This document shows, one piece after another, positions 860-61,223 of a DNA stretch of 64,000 bases. The translations under genes were made by a program, and so were the position numbers. Position 1 is the first letter of the stretch. Each line of letters begins with the position of its first letter. Under the pieces are notes generated by a model, which did not search any database, was not told the DNA's origin, and was given only the letters and a program-made list of their open reading frames with translations. The stretch is from a virus: positions 1 through 64,000 of IMG/VR virus record IMGVR_UViG_3300025874_000005. One strand, given 5' to 3'.

Positions 860-2119
860 ATGTTTTGGTTAGTAGAATCTGAGGATCAAATAAAAAGGTT
901 TTTTCAAAGTAGTTATAAGGAAGCATTTGTAGAAATAATTCCATATAATGACACCGTACACCCCACACAAAACCAAGTTTGTGCCGTTTATATTCGTCCG
1001 TTAGTATCCACAAAAGGATTCATGTTGCCCATTTCGCATAGCGAAACGATTGATACTAGTATTGACAATATAAAACACATATTATCAAAATATGATGCAT
1101 TGTACGTGCGTGATAAAAAGGAATTTTTACATTATTTTCCTTTAAAAACTCTTTATGACATAACACTTAGTTCTCATACGTATATACGTGAAACAACACA
1201 AACCCACTCTTACTTCTACAGCAAGATGGGTGATAAAAAAGATTTAAACCGCATTATTCCAATAGTAAAACATTATGAATATTGTGAAAACCTATTTAAT
1301 GATTTAAAAGATAAAATAAATGAGCCAATCAACGAATTTTACAACACAAAAGCCTCAGTGGTATTCAACGCCGTGGAGCGAAGTGGTTTACGAATTGATA
1401 GAGAAAAATTCCAATCGCACTTTCACGATGTCGATGGAGAGTATGTCTACACACAATTCAACTTTAAAACCCTTACAGGAAGACCAAGTAATAAATTCAA
1501 AGGAGTAAATTATGCGGCGATACCCAAAGATGACGGTAGTAGAGACAGTTTTATCGCAAGTAATGATTGCTTGCTTGAGCTTGATATTGGTGCTTATCAT
1601 CCTACTTTGTTGGCTAAGTTGGTCGATTATGATTTTGGTGATGAGGATATTCATGCTGCCTTTGCTAAAATGTATGGGGTGGATTACCAAAAAGCTAAGG
1701 AGTTAACATTTAAACAACTATACGGAGGAGTATTTGATAAGTATAAAGATCTGGAATTCTTTAGAAAAGTAACGGCATATACGGATGATTTGTGGGATAC
1801 TTTTCAATATCAAGGCTACATTGAATGCCCTATCTCTAAAAAAATATTCAAAAGAGATGAATTAGATAATATGAAGCCTCAAAAGTTGTTAAATTATTTG
1901 CTTCAAAACTTGGAGACGTCATATAACATTCGTATATTGTGGGAAATATTTAAAACATTAAACGGTGCTAATACAAAATTAATACTATATACTTACGATT
2001 CTTTTTTGTTTGATTTAGATAGAAGTGAAAGGGTAAAAATGGTGGAGATATTAAATATATTTAAAGATTATAAATTAAACATAAAATTCAACTATGGCAA
2101 CACATACAATTTTAAATAA
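860..2119 (+). CDS. short family A DNA polymerase-like protein
   Basis: TLTGRPS; motif A LELDIGAYHP; motif B KAKELTFKQLYG; motif C LYTYDSFLFD; only 419 aa. Confidence 0.8.
   Translation: MFWLVESEDQIKRFFQSSYKEAFVEIIPYNDTVHPTQNQVCAVYIRPLVSTKGFMLPISHSETIDTSIDNIKHILSKYDALYVRDKKEFLHYFPLKTLYDITLSSHTYIRETTQTHSYFYSKMGDKKDLNRIIPIVKHYEYCENLFNDLKDKINEPINEFYNTKASVVFNAVERSGLRIDREKFQSHFHDVDGEYVYTQFNFKTLTGRPSNKFKGVNYAAIPKDDGSRDSFIASNDCLLELDIGAYHPTLLAKLVDYDFGDEDIHAAFAKMYGVDYQKAKELTFKQLYGGVFDKYKDLEFFRKVTAYTDDLWDTFQYQGYIECPISKKIFKRDELDNMKPQKLLNYLLQNLETSYNIRILWEIFKTLNGANTKLILYTYDSFLFDLDRSERVKMVEILNIFKDYKLNIKFNYGNTYNFK
1909..1940 (+). promoter_or_regulatory. intragenic sigma70-type promoter
   Basis: TTGG 1910-1913, N19, TTCG-TATATT 1933-1938, inside the polA-like gene. 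Confidence 0.5.
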
Positions 2120-2649: not shown

Positions 2650-3492
2650 ATGGATTTAAATGCAATTAAAAAGCGTCTGAATGATTTTCAAAATCAGACA
2701 AACAGTTCCGGAGGTCAACAAAAACAACTATTCTGGAAGCCAACAGTAGGTAAACAACTAATTAGAGTTGCACCTAACAAATACAACAAAGATTTTCCAT
2801 TTACGGAAATGAAATTCTACTATGGAATTGGTAGTAAACGAGTAATGGCATCTCCTTCAAATTGGGGTGAGAAAGATCCAATTATGGAATTTGCTAAACA
2901 ACTTCGTGGAACTAGTGATAGAGAAAATTGGAGACTAGCTAAAAAATTAGACCCAAAAACACGTATTTTTGCTCCTGTAGTTATTCGTGGGCAAGAAGAT
3001 GAAGGTGTTAAGCTGTGGCAGTTTGGTAAAGAAGTTTATCAAGAATTTTTGAATATGGCTGCTGATGATGAAATTGGTGATTTTACTGATATTGCTGGTG
3101 GTAGAGATATTAAACTATCTACAGTAGGACCAGAAACAACAGGTACTCCTTATAATAAAACATCAATTGGACCATCTTTAAAAACATCTCCACTTCATGA
3201 TGATGCTACATTAGTTGAAAGTTTGATGAATGATCAAGCAGATCCAATGAAGGTATTTAAACCACTTTCATATGATGAAATGAAAGTAGCCCTTCAAGAA
3301 TGGTTAGCCCCAGAGGGTAGTGAAGAAGAAGGAGAAATAACTTCAGAACCTGCAGTAGCGTTTGACAGTGATGAAAAAAAGTCTAATTACTCATTAGATA
3401 CAACATCTACCAATGTTAAAAAGTCAAAAGCCGCACAATTTGATGATTTGTTTTCAGATGATAAAAATAAATCAGACGATTTACCGTTTTAA
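2650..3492 (+). CDS. single-stranded DNA-binding protein (gp32-like)
   Basis: FWKP..., VKLWQFGK, acidic tail ending SDDLPF; next to the recombinase. Confidence 0.8.
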   Translation: MDLNAIKKRLNDFQNQTNSSGGQQKQLFWKPTVGKQLIRVAPNKYNKDFPFTEMKFYYGIGSKRVMASPSNWGEKDPIMEFAKQLRGTSDRENWRLAKKLDPKTRIFAPVVIRGQEDEGVKLWQFGKEVYQEFLNMAADDEIGDFTDIAGGRDIKLSTVGPETTGTPYNKTSIGPSLKTSPLHDDATLVESLMNDQADPMKVFKPLSYDEMKVALQEWLAPEGSEEEGEITSEPAVAFDSDEKKSNYSLDTTSTNVKKSKAAQFDDLFSDDKNKSDDLPF

Positions 3493-3502
3493 TAAATAAT
3501 TT

Positions 3503-4579
3503 ATGGCTAGAAAGAAAAAATCACTATCGGAGGCAGTCTCCTCAGAAATACAGGCAAATTTTAACTTAGATGGGTTTAAATCTAAAAAAGGTTTAACATC
3601 CAAAGCTAAATTTAAGGATCAAGAATGGATTCCTCTATCACCAGCATACCAGGAAATAACGTCAGTACCTGGTATTCCTATGGGTCATATAGTTTTACTT
3701 AGAGGTCATTCTGACACTGGAAAAACTACAGCTCTATTAGAAACAGCAGTTGAAGCTCAAAAACGTAAAGTACTTCCGGTTTTTATCATTACAGAGATGA
3801 AATGGAATTGGGAGCATGCTATACAGATGGGTTTAAAAGTTAATGAAGTTGTTGATGAAGAAACAGGTGAAATAACTGATTATAATGGTAATTTTATTTA
3901 TGTAGACAGAGAAACTATCCATTCAATTGAAGATGTTTCTGGATTTATTCTTGATTTAATTGATGAGCAGAAAAATGGTAACTTACCTTATGATTTACTA
4001 TTTCTTTGGGATTCAATTGGTTCAGTACCATGTGAAATGTCTATTAAATCTAATAAAAATAATAATGAGTGGAATGCTGGAGCAATGTCAACACAGTTTG
4101 GAAATAGTGTAAACCAACGCATTACATTATCTCGTAAAGAATCATCTCCATATACTAATACTTTAGTTTGTATTAATAAAGTATGGACAGCAAAAGCAGA
4201 ATCACCAATGGGTAAACCAAAACTTATGAATAAAGGTGGATTTGCTATGTGGTTTGATTCAACATTTGTTGTAACCTTTGGTAATATTATGAATGCTGGA
4301 ACTTCTAAAATAAAAGCTATTAAAGGAGGAAAACAAGTAGAATTTGCTAAACGTGTAAATGTTCAGGTTGATAAAAACCACATTAATGGTATGACAACAA
4401 GAGGAAAACTTGTAATGACACCTCATGGGTTTATTTTGGATAATGATAAAGATTTGAAGAAATATAAAGAAGACCATGCAGAAGAATGGGCTGCTATATT
4501 AGGTGGAAGTGATTTCAAGATCGCAGAAGAAGATCAAGAATATCATGATATAACATCTCACACAGACGAGCCACAATAA
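3503..4579 (+). CDS. uvsX: RecA/UvsX-like recombinase
   Basis: Walker A GHSDTGKT, Walker B FLWDS, NKGG, DKNH. Confidence 0.85.
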   Translation: MARKKKSLSEAVSSEIQANFNLDGFKSKKGLTSKAKFKDQEWIPLSPAYQEITSVPGIPMGHIVLLRGHSDTGKTTALLETAVEAQKRKVLPVFIITEMKWNWEHAIQMGLKVNEVVDEETGEITDYNGNFIYVDRETIHSIEDVSGFILDLIDEQKNGNLPYDLLFLWDSIGSVPCEMSIKSNKNNNEWNAGAMSTQFGNSVNQRITLSRKESSPYTNTLVCINKVWTAKAESPMGKPKLMNKGGFAMWFDSTFVVTFGNIMNAGTSKIKAIKGGKQVEFAKRVNVQVDKNHINGMTTRGKLVMTPHGFILDNDKDLKKYKEDHAEEWAAILGGSDFKIAEEDQEYHDITSHTDEPQ

Positions 4580-14952: not shown

Positions 14953-15378
14953 ATGAAAAAGATGATTTTAACACTAGCTTTAGGACTGTTTATTGCAGTT
15001 GGAGCTAACGCACAAGAAGTGCAAAACGCAAAAGGTGATTGGTACGTTGGTACTGGTAACATTGCAGATGTATCATGGACTGAATGGTCTTTAAGCCCAA
15101 CAGTGGGATATGCTATAACAGATGACCTTATGATAGGGGCAAATGTTTCTCAAGCAGATTCTTCTAAGGATGTAAGTTTAGATCTACATGCAAGATATTT
15201 CTATAAAGGATATTTCGCATATGTAGCTACAGACGGACTAGACACAGATGGTATGAAATTAGGAGTTGGTAGAATGTTTGCCTTTCATAAAGGTGGAATG
15301 TTCCTAGATCCGAAAGTTGTGTACGATACACAAGCTAAAACTACTAACTTACAGTTAGGGTTTGGTTTGAAGTTTTAA
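14953..15378 (+). CDS. small outer-membrane beta-barrel protein
   Basis: Signal peptide ending ANA-Q; amphipathic strands; terminal LGFGLKF. Confidence 0.7.
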   Translation: MKKMILTLALGLFIAVGANAQEVQNAKGDWYVGTGNIADVSWTEWSLSPTVGYAITDDLMIGANVSQADSSKDVSLDLHARYFYKGYFAYVATDGLDTDGMKLGVGRMFAFHKGGMFLDPKVVYDTQAKTTNLQLGFGLKF

Positions 15379-15405
15379 TTATTGTTTAACTTAAATTAAA
15401 TTAAA

Positions 15406-15633
15406 ATGGAAAATGTAATTAAGTATGTAACTGGATTTTTTGGAGGTTTGTTATCAATTATGATGGCAGTTCTTCCAGTAGCGATCCTATGGAATGTTTT
15501 AACTGGTCAAACTATATTCGGAATGGATGTAGTTGGTAACTTAACAGGTTTAATCTCAAGCTTTGGTGAGGGTGGATTTGTTGGTTTAGTAGCACTAGTT
15601 ATTTTAGCTCAATTCTTTATTAATAAGAAATAA
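15406..15633 (+). CDS. small Gly-rich membrane protein
   Basis: Two hydrophobic segments. Confidence 0.7.
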   Translation: MENVIKYVTGFFGGLLSIMMAVLPVAILWNVLTGQTIFGMDVVGNLTGLISSFGEGGFVGLVALVILAQFFINKK

Positions 15634-15652
15634 GCTTAATCTATATAGTAGA

Positions 15653-15680
15653 GAAAGGCGCCTTAATTGGCGCCTTTTTT
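15653..15680 (+). terminator. intrinsic terminator
   Basis: GAAAGGCGCC-TTAATT-GGCGCCTTTTTT. Confidence 0.9.
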
Positions 15681-15697
15681 CTTTCTATGCGAAAAAA

Positions 15698-15752
15698 TTT
15701 GGAGAAGCGGAAGAGGGTTCGTATATTTACGTATAAATAAGGGCGTTAAGCC
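15698..15752 (+). promoter_or_regulatory. early promoter + leader stem-loop cassette
   Basis: TTGGAGAAGC 15699, TATATT 15722-15727, then GGC-GTTAA-GCC. Confidence 0.75.
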
Positions 15753-15774
15753 AAGTATAAATTAAATAAAAGTT

Positions 15775-16101
15775 ATGTCAAAAGAAATTAAAGAAACATT
15801 AAAGAAAGGTAAAGTTGATTTTACAGTCACAGGTATTACTACTTATTGTAAAGGTGATGATGGTAAGTGGGGGATGAATCCAAAAGTATTTACTGTAAGT
15901 GAAAAAGGTGATTCAATTAATTGTGATTGGAATGGAATGAATGTTACTAAATGGGGTCCTACCTGTGTTACATTATATACATTTGATATGTTAGGTAAAA
16001 AATCAGTAGGGAAAATTAATTATAAAGACATTACACTAAAAGAAATAAAAGTAGAATGTTCAGCAGCATTAGATAATGAATGGGCTAACGAAAGTATTTA
16101 A
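15775..16101 (+). CDS. hypothetical protein
   Basis: ORF with AAATAAAAGTT-ATG start context. Confidence 0.7.
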   Translation: MSKEIKETLKKGKVDFTVTGITTYCKGDDGKWGMNPKVFTVSEKGDSINCDWNGMNVTKWGPTCVTLYTFDMLGKKSVGKINYKDITLKEIKVECSAALDNEWANESI

Positions 16102-16116
16102 TTAAAAAATAAAATT

Positions 16117-16254
16117 ATGTTTATAGACATTGAAGTATTAGCAGATCAATGGGAATTAGAACAAGAACTAATAACCCAACTCCAAGAAGAATTATTAGAA
16201 AACCCAGGAATTTTCCTTACTGAAGAAGGGGAAGAAGATGATTTACCATTCTGA
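16117..16254 (+). CDS. 45-aa acidic microprotein ending in DDLPF (not in ORF track)
   Basis: MFIDIEVLADQWELEQELITQLQEELLENPGIFLTEEGEEDDLPF*; A-rich start context; fills the intergenic gap. Confidence 0.7.
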   Translation: MFIDIEVLADQWELEQELITQLQEELLENPGIFLTEEGEEDDLPF

Positions 16255-16255
16255 T

Positions 16256-16651
16256 ATGAAAGTTCCAAATAATTTATATGTAAAGTGGACTGATAAAAAA
16301 GGCTATGGAGTCTTCACAGACACACCTATTAAAAAGGGAGAACTTATTGAAAGATGCTATTGTATAAAAACTGGTAGTCCAAAAGACCATGTTAATGGTA
16401 CTTTAATGGATTATGTATTTAATTATCCTAGAGGTACTAGTATGGATAATGGAGCAGAACATGTATTACCTTTAGGTTTTGGTTGTATATACAACCATAG
16501 TAATGATAATAGTAATGCAATGTGGGATAATACTAAAGATATACCTTACCATTTTGATTTTATTGCTTTAAAAAATATTGAAGTTGGGGAAGAAATTTGC
16601 ACTTATTATGGAGATGAATATTGGCCAACTAAAGACATATCACCAATATAA
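16256..16651 (+). CDS. SET-domain protein-lysine methyltransferase
   Basis: GYGVF, IYNHS, GEEICTYYG. Confidence 0.85.
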   Translation: MKVPNNLYVKWTDKKGYGVFTDTPIKKGELIERCYCIKTGSPKDHVNGTLMDYVFNYPRGTSMDNGAEHVLPLGFGCIYNHSNDNSNAMWDNTKDIPYHFDFIALKNIEVGEEICTYYGDEYWPTKDISPI

Positions 16652-16652
16652 C

Positions 16653-17153
16653 ATGAAAACCCCTAAAAAACCAAGTGGAAGAAGAGCTTTACCTTTTTAT
16701 TGGTGGAGGCGTTTTAGAACTCATAAATCTTTACCTTATAAATTTTCCCTTTTAGATAAAATTAGAAACGGGGATTTTGAATACCCAGAATACTTCCAAC
16801 AAGCAGAATGGGAGTTAAAGTGGATGAAGGATGAACAAAAAGAATTTATTGATAATTACCAAGGTCGAGAACCAGAGCAAGATAGACTTTATCTTGAAAT
16901 TGAGTTGCGTGCTAGGAAACGCTATAATAAATTGTTTGAAGATGGTATGAAAACCGAGTATGAAAGAATGGATGATTTAAAACAAAAATTGGGTAAAGTA
17001 TTTAAAATTAGTAAACAAGAAGTTCAAGATATTATGGAACAATTTGGAGGTACTACTGAAGAGTTGTATTTTCACATAGCAAAGATTAAAAATTATAACA
17101 TAGACACTTTAAATAAATTAAATGCAAGTAAAACTATTAAACATTACTCCTAA
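16653..17153 (+). CDS. hypothetical protein
   Basis: Track ORF 16578; ATG at 16653. Confidence 0.7.
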   Translation: MKTPKKPSGRRALPFYWWRRFRTHKSLPYKFSLLDKIRNGDFEYPEYFQQAEWELKWMKDEQKEFIDNYQGREPEQDRLYLEIELRARKRYNKLFEDGMKTEYERMDDLKQKLGKVFKISKQEVQDIMEQFGGTTEELYFHIAKIKNYNIDTLNKLNASKTIKHYS

Positions 17154-17778
17154 TGCTGAAGAGCATATTGTGGAGATTGCACGTGTATCTAGTTCACGTA
17201 AGGATAAGAAGACTAATGCAGCAGGCCTTCTCAAATACCTTGTACGCCACAAGCACTGGTCGCCGTTTGAACATAGTCACGCGACGTTCGAAATTGAAAC
17301 TTCCAAAGCAATCGGAATCCAGCTCATCCGCCACCGTTCGTTTTCTTTTCAAGAGTTTAGCCAACGATATCAAGATGTTAATAAAGTTGGATCCATTTTT
17401 GAACCCATCGAGCTTCGAGAACAATGCGAAGACAACAGACAAAGCTCAACCAAAGTAGTTAATCCTATTATAAAGGGAGTAGACCTAAAAACCATTCAAA
17501 CTACAGCTTTAAACGCTATCAACGGACTTTTAAATAACTCCCATATTCTTTATAATCAACTTTTAGAAGCGGGAGTTGCTAGGGAGCAAGCTAGAATGAT
17601 TTTACCATTAACTACTACTACTAAAATTCAAATGACTGGATCGATTCGTTCTTGGGTTCATTTTCTTGAATTAAGAGATGATGAGCACGCCCAAAAAGAA
17701 ATACAACTAATAGCAAAAGAAATTAAAAAACAACTAAAAACAAACCTTCCAGTAATATCGGAAGCCTTAAATTTTTAA
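17122..17778 (+). CDS. thyX: FAD-dependent thymidylate synthase
   Basis: HWSPFEH, RHRSFSFQEFSQRY, REQAR, HAQKEI. Confidence 0.95.
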   Translation: MQVKLLNITPNAEEHIVEIARVSSSRKDKKTNAAGLLKYLVRHKHWSPFEHSHATFEIETSKAIGIQLIRHRSFSFQEFSQRYQDVNKVGSIFEPIELREQCEDNRQSSTKVVNPIIKGVDLKTIQTTALNAINGLLNNSHILYNQLLEAGVAREQARMILPLTTTTKIQMTGSIRSWVHFLELRDDEHAQKEIQLIAKEIKKQLKTNLPVISEALNF

Positions 17779-17779
17779 A

Positions 17780-17959
17780 ATGATAGAATTTTTTAAACAT
17801 GCTTTAGGATTATGTGGTGAACATTGGCACCCAAACATTTTTACAATTATCTTAGGTGGGCTTGGATTATCCGCTCCATTTTCGTATATTAAATACAAAT
17901 TAAACAGTTATGGCAATAAAAATAAGTCACGAAACACCCCTATGTCTATTAAACGATAG
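17780..17959 (+). CDS. 59-aa membrane microprotein (not in track)
   Basis: MIEFFKHALGLCGEHWHPNIFTIILGGLGL...; ATG 1 nt after the thyX stop. Confidence 0.5.
   Translation: MIEFFKHALGLCGEHWHPNIFTIILGGLGLSAPFSYIKYKLNSYGNKNKSRNTPMSIKR
17861..17892 (+). promoter_or_regulatory. sigma70-type promoter for the dpdA-like gene
   Basis: TTGG 17862-17865, N19, TATATT 17885-17890. Confidence 0.7.
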
Positions 17960-18701
17960 TAGACGATTTAATGATTATGACTATTGTCTTCCCCATTTAT
18001 TGGATGAAGAACCAGGTTATTTAGAATATTTTTTAGAATCTAAAAGACAAGGTCGTTATATTATAATGGATAATTCTCTTCATGAATTAGGCGAAGCCTA
18101 TAACCATGAACGTCTTGTATATTGGGTTAATGAATTAGAACCTAATGAATTTATAGTACCAGATGTTTGGGAAAATTGTGTAGAATCTATTCAAAATGCT
18201 GAAATATGGAATATTTATGATTTTCCTGAAGGAGTTGAGAAAGTTGCTGTAGTTCAAGCAAAAACAATTCATGAAGCTTCACAATGTGTTAAAGCTTATA
18301 AAAATTTAGGTTACGGTAAAATTTGTTTTTCATATGGGGCTTCTTATTATAATGATGTTTGTCCTCACCCAAATAAGGATTTAGGTAAAGCTTTAGGAAG
18401 ACTTTATGTAATTTCAGCTTTAATGAAAATGGGAGATATTAAACAAGATGATAGAATTCATTTATTAGGATGTGCTGTACCCCAAGAGTTTGGGTGGTAT
18501 GAAGGTATTAATTGCATAGAATCAATTGATACATCAAACCCAGTTATGGCGACATTAGAAGATGTTCAATATAGAAATTATGGTTTATATCAAAAACCAA
18601 AAGCAAATATGAATGATTATTTTTATATGTTAAATGATCAAGTTGATTATGATCTTTTAACTTACAATTTAGATGTGTTTAAAATGATAAATAATTTATA
18701 A
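17910..18701 (+). CDS. dpdA: DpdA-like (TGT-fold) deazaguanine DNA transglycosylase
   Basis: IMDNS, VPDV, VVQ, IHLLG, SIDTS motifs of TGT/DpdA; context with queCDE and folE. Confidence 0.7.
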   Translation: MAIKISHETPLCLLNDSRRFNDYDYCLPHLLDEEPGYLEYFLESKRQGRYIIMDNSLHELGEAYNHERLVYWVNELEPNEFIVPDVWENCVESIQNAEIWNIYDFPEGVEKVAVVQAKTIHEASQCVKAYKNLGYGKICFSYGASYYNDVCPHPNKDLGKALGRLYVISALMKMGDIKQDDRIHLLGCAVPQEFGWYEGINCIESIDTSNPVMATLEDVQYRNYGLYQKPKANMNDYFYMLNDQVDYDLLTYNLDVFKMINNL

Positions 18702-18702
18702 A

Positions 18703-18897
18703 ATGGCAAAACTAACAAGAAATGTAAATTACGCAAATTACAGATGGGAAGAATATGTGTTAACCGAAGAAGAATTAACACAGTGGAAAACGGGTGATGA
18801 AGATATCCAACAAGAGATTATAGATAATGCAGATTGGGATCTAGTAAGAGATAAACCAATTGATGATTACAGTGAACCAGAATTTATAGAAGAATAA
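18703..18897 (+). CDS. small acidic hypothetical protein
   Basis: Tightly packed ORF. Confidence 0.65.
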   Translation: MAKLTRNVNYANYRWEEYVLTEEELTQWKTGDEDIQQEIIDNADWDLVRDKPIDDYSEPEFIEE

Positions 18898-18901
18898 AGA
18901 T

Positions 18902-19126
18902 ATGTTAAAAAAACAATCAATAAGGTCTAATCAGACCATTTTTATCAATAATAATGATAAATCAGCAAGTAAAGATGAAATTCTAGCACTTAGTGAATTT
19001 TGGACTGATAGAGAAGAAGGATTATTTCGAAAACTTCTTAAACAAGGTGGAAGTACAAAAATACAAGGTACTCATTTTAAAGTGGTTGTTGAAGAAAAAC
19101 AACTTAAATTACGTGACATGCAATAG
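18902..19126 (+). CDS. hypothetical protein
   Basis: Tightly packed ORF. Confidence 0.65.
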   Translation: MLKKQSIRSNQTIFINNNDKSASKDEILALSEFWTDREEGLFRKLLKQGGSTKIQGTHFKVVVEEKQLKLRDMQ

Positions 19127-37868: not shown

Positions 37869-38063
37869 ATGTCACAAACAAAAGAAATGACACTTACGAG
37901 TGTAAAAGTAAAAAGCAATTTATTCGAAAATTTTAAAATAGAATGTGTAAAACGGAAATTTAGTTTCCAAAAACTTGCTGATCGAGCTATATTCTTATAT
38001 CTTACAGATGAAGATTTTAGGAAAAAAATTAATAATCAAACTAACTTAGAAATTAAAGACTAA
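37869..38063 (+). CDS. small ribbon-helix-helix-like protein
   Basis: TSVKV strand followed by two helices. Confidence 0.5.
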   Translation: MSQTKEMTLTSVKVKSNLFENFKIECVKRKFSFQKLADRAIFLYLTDEDFRKKINNQTNLEIKD

Positions 38064-38070
38064 AACAAAA

Positions 38071-39501
38071 ATGAAAGAAGGTTATATTAAACAAGATAAT
38101 AGAAAGAAAATTCTATTGTTAACTGATGATATTAGAGTACATTCAGGTGTTGCGCAGATTGGTAGAGAAATTATTTCAAAAACTTCTCATCGTTATAATT
38201 GGTGTCAATTAGCAGGATCAGTCCAACATCCAGAAAAGGGAAAAGTACAAGATATATCAGCAGATATTAACAAACAAGAAGGGATTGAAGATACTTATTG
38301 TAAGTTATATCCCGTAGATGGTTATGGAACTAGTGATATTTTAAGGGAAGTTATTAAAATAGAAAAACCAGATGCAATTCTTTTAATTACAGATCCAAGA
38401 TATTTTAATTGGGTTTTTCAAATGGAAGATGAAATTAGAACTAAAATTCCAATTGCTTATCTTAACATTTGGGATGATATGCCTGCCCCCCAATATAATG
38501 AGGAATTTTATGAATCTTGTGATGCTTTATTTGGTATTTCAAAACAAACTACAGCAATTAATAAAATTGTTTTAGGAGATAAAGCTAAAGATAAAATTAT
38601 TGAATACATCCCTCATGGTTTAGATAATAAAAAATTCTTCCCAATGGTAGAAAAAGATGAGGAGTTTACAAAGTTTAAAAATCTACTAACTAAGGGTGTA
38701 GAAAAAGACTTTATTTTACTTTTTAATTCAAGAAACATTAGAAGAAAATCTATCCCAGACGCTATTGCAGCTTGGAAATTATTTGTAGATACATTAACTA
38801 AAAAAGAAAAAGAAAAAGTACAATTTATTTTACATACAGACCCTGTAAGTGATGCTGGAACAGATCTACCAGCAGTAATAGATTATATAATGGGTGAAGA
38901 TGATGAAACTGTAGTAATTTCAAACCAAAAACTCCCACATACTCATATGAATTATCTTTATAATATGGCTGATGGGGTTATATTATTATCTTCAGCTGAG
39001 GGTTGGGGATTAGCATTAACTGAATCTTTACTTACAGGAACACCTATTATTGCTAATGTAACTGGAGGTATGCAAGACCAAATGAGATTTGTTGATGAAA
39101 ATGGAAATTGGTATACTAATTCAAAAGAAATACCATCAAATCAATTTGGTACATATAAAGAGCATGGAATATGGGCACTACCAGTTTTTCCAAAAGCAGT
39201 AGGTATGGTAGGTTCACCTATGACACCTTATATTTGGGATAGTAGATGTGATTTTAGAGATGCTAAAGATAGAATTATTGAATTATACAAAATGCCTAAA
39301 GAACAAAGATTTACGCAAGGTAATGCTGGTAGAGAATGGGCTTTAAGTGATGAAGCTGGGTTTACAGCTGAACATATGGGTAATAGATTTATTGATGGAA
39401 TGGAAAAATTATTTTCAACTTGGATGCCTAGAGAAAATTTCACATTTTGGAAAGATACAGATTACAAATCAAGAAAACTTAATCATAAATTAGAATATTA
39501 A
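38071..39501 (+). CDS. glycosyltransferase (GT-B/GT4-like)
   Basis: HSGVA, IPHG, RNIRRK, EGWGLALTES. Confidence 0.88.
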   Translation: MKEGYIKQDNRKKILLLTDDIRVHSGVAQIGREIISKTSHRYNWCQLAGSVQHPEKGKVQDISADINKQEGIEDTYCKLYPVDGYGTSDILREVIKIEKPDAILLITDPRYFNWVFQMEDEIRTKIPIAYLNIWDDMPAPQYNEEFYESCDALFGISKQTTAINKIVLGDKAKDKIIEYIPHGLDNKKFFPMVEKDEEFTKFKNLLTKGVEKDFILLFNSRNIRRKSIPDAIAAWKLFVDTLTKKEKEKVQFILHTDPVSDAGTDLPAVIDYIMGEDDETVVISNQKLPHTHMNYLYNMADGVILLSSAEGWGLALTESLLTGTPIIANVTGGMQDQMRFVDENGNWYTNSKEIPSNQFGTYKEHGIWALPVFPKAVGMVGSPMTPYIWDSRCDFRDAKDRIIELYKMPKEQRFTQGNAGREWALSDEAGFTAEHMGNRFIDGMEKLFSTWMPRENFTFWKDTDYKSRKLNHKLEY

Positions 39502-40806
39502 ATGAAGAATACATTTGTTATAAGCGCTCCAGTTGATACTTACTCAGGTTACGGAGCCCGAAGTAGAGATTTTGTGAAAGCATTAATTGAGTCAGATAAA
39601 TATGATATTAAAATTATCCCTCAAAGATGGGGAGATACTAGAAAAGGATTTTTAGATGATTTTCCAGAATGGAACTTTATGAGAGAATATCTCACCCCTC
39701 AACTAACGTCAAAACCCGATATTTGGTGTCAAGTAACAGTACCCAATGAATTCCAAGCTGTAGGCATATATAACATTGGTCTAACGGCAGGTATCGAAAC
39801 TACAGCATGTGCCCCTCAATGGATTGAAGGGTGTAATAGAATGGATATGATACTTACATCCTCAAACCATTCTAAACAAGTATTCGAAAATACTTCATTT
39901 GAGATACAAGATAAAAATACAGGTAAAAAAGGTGAATTAAAATGTACTACCCCAGTAAACGTATTGTTTGAGGGAGCTAATTTAGAAATTTATAAACCGG
40001 TTAAAGAATTCACAAATAAAAAGTTATATGATCATATTAAGGATATTCCTGAGAAATTTGCTTATTTATTTGTTGGTCATTGGTTACAAGGAAGTTTAGG
40101 GCATGATAGAAAAAATGTAGGTTTATTAATTAAAGCTTTTTATGAAGTATATAAAAATAAAAAAAATTCACCGGCATTAATTTTAAAAACCTCAATAGGG
40201 AAGGGATCACATATGGATAGGAGAGAAATACTTAAAAGAATGAAAAGTATTAGAGATACTCTCCCAAAAACAGACAGATTACCTTCAATTTATTTAATTC
40301 ATGGGGATCTATCAGATGCTGAAATTAATGAATTATACCACAACCCAAAAGTAAAAGCTATGATTAGTGCTACTAAAGGTGAGGGATTTGGAAGACCATT
40401 ATTAGAGTTTGCTTTAACAGGTAAACCCACAATAGCAACAGCTTGGTCAGGCCATATTGATTTTTTAAATCCTAAATTAGCACCTTTAATGGGGGGTAAA
40501 TTAAATAACTTAGATCAATCATCAATACAGAAAGATGTACTTATTGAAGGTTCACAATGGTTTGATGTAGACCATCAACATTTGGGTCACTTCTTAACAG
40601 ATGTTAAGAAAAATTATAAAACTTGGAATCAAAAATCAAAAACATTAGCTGGTAGATTAAAGAAAAACTTTAGTTATGAAGCTATGAAATCTTTATTAAT
40701 TGAGATTTTAGATGATAATGTTAGTGTTCCAACACAAATTCAATTAAACCTCCCAGAAGTTAAAAAATCTGGATTACCTAAATTAGAATTACCAATACTA
40801 AAATAA
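39502..40806 (+). CDS. glycosyltransferase (GT-B/GT4-like)
   Basis: SGYG, DRKN, GEGFGRPLLEF. Confidence 0.88.
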   Translation: MKNTFVISAPVDTYSGYGARSRDFVKALIESDKYDIKIIPQRWGDTRKGFLDDFPEWNFMREYLTPQLTSKPDIWCQVTVPNEFQAVGIYNIGLTAGIETTACAPQWIEGCNRMDMILTSSNHSKQVFENTSFEIQDKNTGKKGELKCTTPVNVLFEGANLEIYKPVKEFTNKKLYDHIKDIPEKFAYLFVGHWLQGSLGHDRKNVGLLIKAFYEVYKNKKNSPALILKTSIGKGSHMDRREILKRMKSIRDTLPKTDRLPSIYLIHGDLSDAEINELYHNPKVKAMISATKGEGFGRPLLEFALTGKPTIATAWSGHIDFLNPKLAPLMGGKLNNLDQSSIQKDVLIEGSQWFDVDHQHLGHFLTDVKKNYKTWNQKSKTLAGRLKKNFSYEAMKSLLIEILDDNVSVPTQIQLNLPEVKKSGLPKLELPILK

Positions 40807-60007: not shown

Positions 60008-60808
60008 ATGGTAAATAAAGTTAAAAGAGGTCGTCCGAGTAAGAAAGTTGTTAACAACCCAACACAAAGTGTTGTTGTTAAAACAGTTAAAATGGATAAT
60101 ATGGAATTCAACAAGAAATTGTTTGAGCCAATGAAAACAGGTACAAAGGTTGATCCATTCTTCAGTATGGAAGGTGGAGTAATGCCTGGTACAAATGTTG
60201 TAGTTACTGGTGATCCAGGTGTTGGTAAAACAACAGTATTGTTAGATGTTCTTGCTGATCTTAATCAGAAAGGTAAAAAATGTTTGTTCATTTCAGGTGA
60301 AATGAATGCTATTGACATGGTTGGTTATGTTAAGCGATTCCCAAAATTTGGAGATTTAGATATCTTGTTTATGGGTGATTATAGTGAAGTTAATCCTGAT
60401 GTTGTTCTTCGAACTGCACTTAAAGAGGGTTATGATTGTGTATTAATTGATTCGCTTGCTGAGATTTCAGATAATTATGTTGATTATTTTGGTGGTACTG
60501 GTAAGTCAAATACCAACCGAATTTTGCAGTTGCTTGATGAGCATAACCAAGCAAATAATGATGATAAAATTAATAGCACGTTTTTGATCATTCAACAAGT
60601 TACTAAAGGTGGAACGTTTGTTGGGTCAAATAAGATTAAGCATATGACAACAGCAATGGGTCATTTAAAATTTGACGGTGATGGTCAGCGTTTTTTCCAT
60701 TTCAGTAAAAACCGTCGAGGTGGTAGTGGAAATAAATTGTTCTTCAACTTGAACAGTAAAAATAAAGTTAACTGGTTATTTGATGAGCCGATAAACATGA
60801 CAGCATAA
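60008..60808 (+). CDS. RadA/Sms-like RecA-family ATPase
   Basis: GDPGVGKT, ISGE, LIDS, QVTKGG..GS, KNR. Confidence 0.85.
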   Translation: MVNKVKRGRPSKKVVNNPTQSVVVKTVKMDNMEFNKKLFEPMKTGTKVDPFFSMEGGVMPGTNVVVTGDPGVGKTTVLLDVLADLNQKGKKCLFISGEMNAIDMVGYVKRFPKFGDLDILFMGDYSEVNPDVVLRTALKEGYDCVLIDSLAEISDNYVDYFGGTGKSNTNRILQLLDEHNQANNDDKINSTFLIIQQVTKGGTFVGSNKIKHMTTAMGHLKFDGDGQRFFHFSKNRRGGSGNKLFFNLNSKNKVNWLFDEPINMTA

Positions 60809-60984
60809 TGTATATTTTAATTTACATAGTAATAGGATCAGCTCTCACTTCATTGTGGGACTGGTTGCTATTTGGGACTAAGAATCAATTTTCAAATATA
60901 GAAAGAGCTGTTTGTATATTAGTTTGGCCTGCAGCTTTAGGTTTATATTTGTATAATTTATATAATACATTTAAAAAAAAGTAA
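60808..60984 (+). CDS. 58-aa two-TM protein (not in track)
   Basis: MYILIYIVIGSAL...LVWPAALG...; TAATG coupling on both sides. Confidence 0.6.
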   Translation: MYILIYIVIGSALTSLWDWLLFGTKNQFSNIERAVCILVWPAALGLYLYNLYNTFKKK

Positions 60985-61223
60985 TGATGGGTAAAGAAGA
61001 AAAAAGATACGTTGTAAAGATGGATATGTATGTTTATGCTGAAAATGATTATATGGCTCGTAAACGAGCTCATCAAATGAAGAAAGAAATTGATAGTAAA
61101 TATGGTGGTGGAGTTGGTATATTAGAATTAGGTGAACAACCTTTTGCTTCTTTTAATTATAGAAAATTAGAAGACCATTCTGAACCTATTAGTAAACAAA
61201 AACAAGAAGAATTACCATTTTAA
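60984..61223 (+). CDS. hypothetical protein ending EELPF
   Basis: C-terminus KQEELPF. Confidence 0.65.
   Translation: MMGKEEKRYVVKMDMYVYAENDYMARKRAHQMKKEIDSKYGGGVGILELGEQPFASFNYRKLEDHSEPISKQKQEELPF

Follow-up and report, generated by a model that had tools for sequence, protein, structure and literature searches.

A small acidic phage protein that ends in the docking tip of bacterial SSBs

The window analysed here, the first 64 kb of a complete virus record of 164,118 bases (31.9% G+C), contains a conserved gene for an acidic microprotein of 45 residues, whose last five residues, DDLPF, are also the last five of the phage's own gp32-type SSB. Our leading explanation, which we hold tentatively and at a little less than even confidence, is that the microprotein is a free carrier of the SSB tip; as a competitor or as an adaptor, it would fill the pocket with which client enzymes, in all likelihood host ones, receive this tip. 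The data establish the gene, its architecture, the conservation of the tip and its identity with documented SSB tips, whereas binding, the choice of client and a blocking or recruiting effect are inferred.

The microprotein gene and the identity of its tip

Gene order and an SSB of 38% identity place the phage in a loose relationship with Flavobacterium phage immuto and with marine phages that have not been cultured. The microprotein has 15 acidic residues (4 Asp and 11 Glu) and no Lys, Arg or His, and its calculated charge at pH 7 is -15.5. A search of the whole genome in six frames for the pattern [DE][DE][ILMV]PF returned three occurrences, all three immediately before a stop codon and on the + strand, and their bearers are the SSB, the microprotein and a 79-codon ORF near the end of the window. 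The number of ORFs ending in [DE][DE]LPF expected from composition is 0.0007, and the DDLPF ending is far above chance expectation; sequence, charge and rarity of the motif agree with the initial annotation, which had described an acidic ORF of 45 residues with an SSB-type end. Elsewhere in the genome, beyond the window, a 135-codon ORF at about 111806-112213 (+) has an NLPF end, which may be there by chance.

Comparison of eight distinct DNA versions of the gene gave a dN/dS of 0.10 in the microprotein frame versus 0.37-4.0 in the other five frames, and the variable columns were distributed as 15/4/21 over codon positions 1/2/3. The A-rich start context lies in the 98th percentile of the starts of long ORFs and in the 99.9th percentile of all ATGs. 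Purifying selection acts on the gene, and the ORF is a real gene.

The AlphaFold2 model, built with 26 sequences, consists of one helix, residues 5-28, followed by a low-confidence tail with a pLDDT of about 50; the last two ten-residue blocks have values of 54 and 48, i.e. the tip ends a disordered segment. Alignment of the homologues revealed that D4, I5, E6, A9, D10 and E25 are invariant and that the conserved acidic positions are D4, E6, D10, E13, E25 and E28, and in one cluster of the family the helix contains an eight-residue duplication. The hydrophobic moment of the helix was not significant against shuffled sequences, 8% of which reach the same value. The short hydrophobic patch between helix and tail would be spaced from the end about like the Leu-Phe of the FDDLF motif in the SSB tail.

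With 45 residues against a domain of about 100, and a single-helix model, the microprotein falls outside the bacterial OB-fold SSBs (PF00436), and Pfam and PHROG searches with it gave no match, including to the gp32 core domain (PF08804). The earlier claim that it has no OB fold is borne out by its length and by its modelling as one helix plus a disordered tail. Its charge, together with the absence of surfaces that are basic or have stacked aromatics, speaks against binding of ssDNA. What the protein does have are the features of the SSB-Ct short linear motif, namely a position at the extreme C-terminus, a Pro-Phe end with a free carboxylate, an aliphatic side chain at -3 preceded by acidic ones from -4 to -7, and a disordered segment before them.

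The S. aureus SsbA tip is DDLPF. EDDLPF, the last six residues of the microprotein, is the SSB-Ct peptide that was crystallised in the C-terminal pocket of RecJ with its Phe buried (PMC4846377). The SSBs of F. psychrophilum and P. torquis end in DLPF, and gammaproteobacterial SSBs end in DIPF (PMC3991886, Table 1). Since EDDLPF is the peptide seen in RecJ and DLPF the ending of these two Flavobacteriia SSBs, we identify the tip as the docking peptide of bacterial SSBs, in the form that goes with the probable host class; the initial reading of the tip as a docking peptide is in agreement with both the crystallised peptide and the Flavobacteriia variant.

Table 1. Locations of the microprotein gene, its parts and related features. 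Positions are those of the window unless a contig (L number) is named.
Feature	Location	Strand	Remarks
Microprotein gene	16117-16254	+	45 codons plus TGA; ATG start
Acidic helix, codons 5-28	16129-16200	+	AlphaFold2, pLDDT 82-93; heptad Ile5, Leu8, Trp12, Ile19, Leu22, Leu26
Short hydrophobic patch, codons 32-34	16210-16218	+	From alignment; 12-14 residues from the end
Disordered acidic tail, codons 35-45	16219-16251	+	pLDDT 48-54; last six residues EDDLPF (16234-16251)
Terminator-like G+C hairpin plus T run	15651-15680	+	12 pairs, 6 of them G-C; closes the upstream unit
Repeated promoter cassette	15698-15739	+	TTTG, 20 nt, then a TAnnTTT-type element
108-codon gene	15775-16101	+	First gene of the unit; no family match
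SET-domain gene	16256-16651	+	PF00856, E 1.2e-11; starts 1 nt past the microprotein stop
gp32-type SSB, 280 residues	2650-3492	+	Pfam PF08804, E 4.5e-13; PHROG SSB families
Two-part SSB tail	FDDLF 3439-3453; DDLPF tip 3475-3489	+	Inside the SSB gene
RecA/UvsX-like recombinase	3503-4579	+	Adjoins the SSB gene; second candidate reader of the tip, a putative link
RecA-core ATPase (AAA_24, Sak4-like)	60008-60808	+	Candidate phage-encoded reader of the tip, a putative link
79-codon gene with EELPF end	60984-61223	+	No family; third LPF bearer; two genes after the Sak4-like ATPase
Chimeric genes	L094 4926-5100; L095 5001-5189; L096 5001-5174		Microprotein helix plus basic module
Intact 72-codon gene	L101 8464-8682		Its first 25 or so residues correspond to the basic module
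Unrelated EDDLPF-ended phage ORFs (IMG/VR, among the matches listed)	L140, L177, L207, L181, L186, L167, L149, L191, L160, L206, L173		

Expression signals, distribution and variants

The microprotein gene lies behind a terminator-like hairpin, a promoter cassette and a 108-codon gene. The cassette, of about 45 nt, recurs about 11 times from 15.7 to 70.5 kb, always on the + strand and a short way ahead of a gene start, and no match to it was found in 100 shuffles. It resembles what we take to be the Bacteroidota sigma-A promoter consensus, TTTG / TAnnTTTG, and the cassettes are probably the phage's set of host-type early promoters. The microprotein had been placed behind such an early promoter; a cassette is indeed upstream, but it directly fronts the 108-codon gene, and the microprotein is second in the unit. 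In some relatives the microprotein is the first gene of the unit, and in L092-L096 the downstream element of the cassette is found about 24 nt before its ATG.

Inspection of the relatives also revealed that the genes around the microprotein are not constant. The homologue of the 108-codon gene, although often close by, may be located upstream of it or downstream of it or may be absent, the SET-domain gene is present in some relatives only, and the downstream neighbour can be the SET-domain gene, a 166-residue gene, thyX or others. A fixed partner gene was considered and rejected on these grounds, for both the 108-residue neighbour and the SET gene. Because the neighbours swap while the microprotein gene stays, the tail is not conserved as a signal belonging to another gene.

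Metagenomes contain about 25 protein clusters at 63-98% identity to the microprotein, and further homologues, at 43-52% identity, emerged from a full profile search, giving a total of about 30, all from phages. Cultured phages yielded no match, either to tblastn of the microprotein against 50,697 records or to megablast of positions 15000-19000; the family is known from metagenomic contigs only. There was no match to the microprotein in 185,579 prokaryote species genomes, a prokaryote genome scan with a 141-residue protein returned no relative, and a search of the ESM Atlas gave no usable match. One relative is 97% complete and has an SSB that is 81% identical with the same tip, yet it is without the microprotein gene, which is therefore accessory.

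The conservation check proposed with the initial annotation was run, and both the ORF and its tip are kept in relatives. Between the close and the distant subfamily, identity is 56% in the helix, 25% in the middle, 77% over the last five residues and 96% over the last three, so that the tip is the best-kept part of the protein. The end is LPF in 25 of 26 homologues and LPI in the remaining one; the Leu at -3 is invariant, and all homologues but one have D, E or N at positions -4 and -5; Gly stands at -4 in one homologue. The codons for the Leu, Pro and Phe of the tip vary synonymously among the eight DNA versions. No fused or longer forms of the microprotein were found, with the single exception of an over-extended ORF call of a chimera.

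Three contigs (L094-L096) carry chimeric genes in which the microprotein helix is kept and the tail is replaced by a basic module. This module matches the N-terminal 25 or so residues encoded by another early gene, of 72 codons, which is intact in L101. An origin of the basic-tail variants by frameshift was rejected, as the DNA alignment shows a swap of modules. The chimeras show that modules are shuffled among tiny early genes. A phage with one such chimera still has an LPF-tipped SSB.

The phage SSB, a third LPF bearer and a possible phage hub

The initial annotation had stated that the phage's own SSB shares the tip of the microprotein. The shared tip is confirmed, and the class of the protein has to be specified as phage gp32-type and not bacterial OB-fold; no match to PF00436 was found in the phage genome. 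The SSB tail has two parts, and among 80 SSB relatives at 68-98% identity the LPF end is present in 78, with FDDLF followed by the LPF tip 8-16 residues later in 74. In the immuto-like SSBs, which are more distant, the chain terminates directly behind FDDLF, which indicates that the FDDLF end is the older one and that this clade has gained the DDLPF tip beyond it. The added tip would give the SSB access to the readers of the host SSB tail, and the gain of the same tip by the SSB argues that it is useful in this host. The tips of the microprotein and of the SSB did not co-vary in the five phages that have both on one contig; in two of these the microprotein has Gly at -4 and the SSB is not changed likewise.

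The third bearer of the ending, the 79-residue protein, retains an [LM]PF end in 16/16 homologues (52-89% identity), preceded by residues that are variable and not acidic, and the family keeps this end even in phages whose SSB is without LPF. Its model comprises a small domain with a disordered end (tail 73-79), and a Foldseek search with the model gave no PDB match. Since the LPF end of this family stands in a non-acidic context and is also found where the SSB is without it, LPF may be read by something other than a classical client of SSB.

These data bear on the strongest of the other explanations, in which LPF is a shared docking tag for one phage-encoded hub, be it the family-A polymerase, a DnaB-type helicase or a RecA-core ATPase, and the microprotein is part of the phage's replication/recombination machinery. 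Such a tag would account for an end that is common to three proteins of one phage and that the 79-residue family retains where the SSB is without it, and the phage has a T7-like set of replication parts, with a split family-A polymerase, a DnaB helicase and two RecA-core ATPases. Precedents exist in T7, where a DTDF peptide in gp4 and the tail of gp2.5 have been mapped to a common site on the polymerase gp5 (PMC12339929), and in HK620, where Sak4 depends on the six C-terminal residues of its SSB (PMC5928155). By analogy, the two RecA-like ATPases of the present phage are possible clients of the tip. However, the microprotein gene is dispensable, being missing in the 97%-complete relative with the same SSB tip, it is found in a variable early region outside the replication module, and the tip, a bacterial one of the Flavobacteriia kind, came as an addition to an SSB with its FDDLF end already in place. 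We consider a phage hub unlikely as the target of the microprotein, while regarding it as a serious contender.

With respect to the replication genes themselves, the family-A DNA polymerase appears to be encoded in two distant genes, the first of them at 860-2119 (+), as annotated in phage immuto (NC_055915 1-1326 / 37898-40231). This first part has a weak PHROG match only (2e-6). No DHH (RecJ-type) gene was found in the phage.

Proposed function and comparison with known systems

The proposal of a free tip carrier directed at host enzymes can be laid out as a series of steps. The gene would be expressed early from a host-type promoter, and its product, with no OB fold and a charge of about -15, would not bind DNA. 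Its EDDLPF end with the free carboxylate would insert into the hydrophobic, basic-rimmed pocket where clients read the SSB tail, and the clients would most likely be host genome-maintenance enzymes, RecJ, RecQ, PriA, RecO or Ung; host clients are favoured because the tip is the Flavobacteriia variant. The inserted tip would compete with the tails of the host SSB, and the helix may bundle several tips or may hold a second partner, in which case the microprotein would act as an adaptor. The initial annotation had offered titration of host repair factors, shielding of the phage SSB from sensors and DNA mimicry as candidate roles of a decoy. As the phage's own SSB bears the same tip, a blanket competitor would also compete with the phage SSB, and the idea of a pure decoy is complicated by the conserved N-terminal helix, by the L094-L096 chimeras, by the third LPF bearer and by the phage RecA-like ATPases as possible clients.

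The composition of the protein could also be explained by a DNA mimic or general acidic inhibitor, in which the helix, perhaps bundled, blocks a host DNA-binding protein such as a nuclease, a restriction enzyme or a nucleoid protein, with the tip being secondary. A small, early, phage-only protein with 15 acidic and no basic residues and with conserved acidic positions would suit such a role, but it is the LPF end and not the acidic surface that is most conserved, and a lone helix of 24 residues is not a known mimic scaffold. We therefore regard this explanation as improbable.

A role as a regulator of SSB, in which the acidic tail binds the ssDNA groove of the host or phage SSB and lowers its ssDNA binding or frees the SSB tail, is quite improbable in our view. 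It draws on the intramolecular binding of the E. coli SSB C-terminus, the subject of PMC3936761, and on the discussion of the Sak4 paper (PMC5928155), which cites the E. coli tail as interacting weakly with the DNA-binding site of its own protein, and the last 14 residues of the microprotein are laid out like the two-part SSB tail. Intramolecular contacts of this kind are, however, described as weak and dependent on tethering, and the lack of co-variation between the two tips in five phages is a further point against it. Finally, LPF as a degradation tag that targets the microprotein and the SSB to a ClpXP-type protease, or saturates the protease, is highly improbable: the C-terminal LPF of SsbA is sufficient for ClpXP degradation in Streptococcus mutans, but, according to section headings of that paper, recognition is strain dependent and LPF is unrecognised by ClpXP in other bacteria (PMC5143411).

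The host-directed tip carrier may have counterparts in other phages. A scan of IMG/VR for E-D-D-L-P-F-stop found, among the matches listed, at least 20 complete ORFs of 74-100 residues in 80 loci. Ten of these EDDLPF-ended ORFs were compared with the SSB and gp32 Pfam families and none of them matched (0/10). Among such ORFs there may be mini-SSBs that have escaped recognition as well as tip carriers. It is conceivable, though we would lean against it at present, that the microprotein is one of a widespread and undescribed class of small phage proteins, unrelated in fold, which have the tip of a bacterial SSB but not its body and with which phages block or rewire the host SSB hub. If true, no natural protein antagonist or adaptor of this hub would have been known before them, and their tips would be matched to the lineage of the host, as DLPF is to Flavobacteriia. 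Replication, repair and recombination in bacteria all have the SSB tail as their central docking hub, which is also a drug target, and a free tip of natural origin would reveal the way in which phages exploit or obstruct it. The microprotein would also offer a ready-made probe for hub clients in Bacteroidota, where these have barely been studied, and would add mimicry of an SSB motif to the known strategies of phage take-over.

With the bacterial SSB-Ct, in the form of DDDIPF in E. coli, EDDLPF in D. radiodurans and DLPF in Flavobacterium psychrophilum and Psychroflexus torquis, the microprotein shares the Pro-Phe end, the aliphatic residue at -3, the acidic residues before it and the disordered stretch; unlike in bacterial SSBs, the carrier is a 45-residue helical protein without an OB fold. 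Small acidic early phage proteins that act as DNA mimics or through docking tails include Ocr, phi29 p56, PBS2 Ugi and T4 gp33, the last of which has a small helical body plus a C-terminal clamp-binding docking peptide common to other T4 proteins. The microprotein has no known sequence or fold relation to any of these four, and LPF is, to our knowledge, not a clamp-binding motif.

In T7, likewise, several phage proteins, the SSB gp2.5 and the helicase-primase gp4, have acidic tails that end in Phe, and these dock at the same place on the polymerase according to PMC12339929 and to Ghosh et al. 2009 as cited there. As in the T7-type sharing of tails, three ORFs of one phage here have the same acidic, aromatic-ended tail, with no other occurrence in six frames. 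The T7 bearers are large core replication enzymes, whereas the present phage has a bacterial-type tip and, among its bearers, a microprotein that is dispensable. In HK620, a phage RecA-core ATPase, Sak4, reads the last six residues of the SSB, and the present phage has two RecA-core ATPases; HK620 differs in that it has no free-standing tip carrier and in its tip, NDYPPF.

A search of the full-text literature on phage SSB-tail mimics and decoys returned synthetic inhibitors and SSB-sensing defence, and no natural stand-alone carrier of the SSB tip. The synthetic SSB-Ct peptides and mimetics (PMC10143822, PMC5872125) rely on the same principle that we propose here, a free tip set against SSB for the client pocket. 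Those inhibitors are laboratory compounds, whereas the microprotein would be a natural and genetically encoded counterpart with an added helix.
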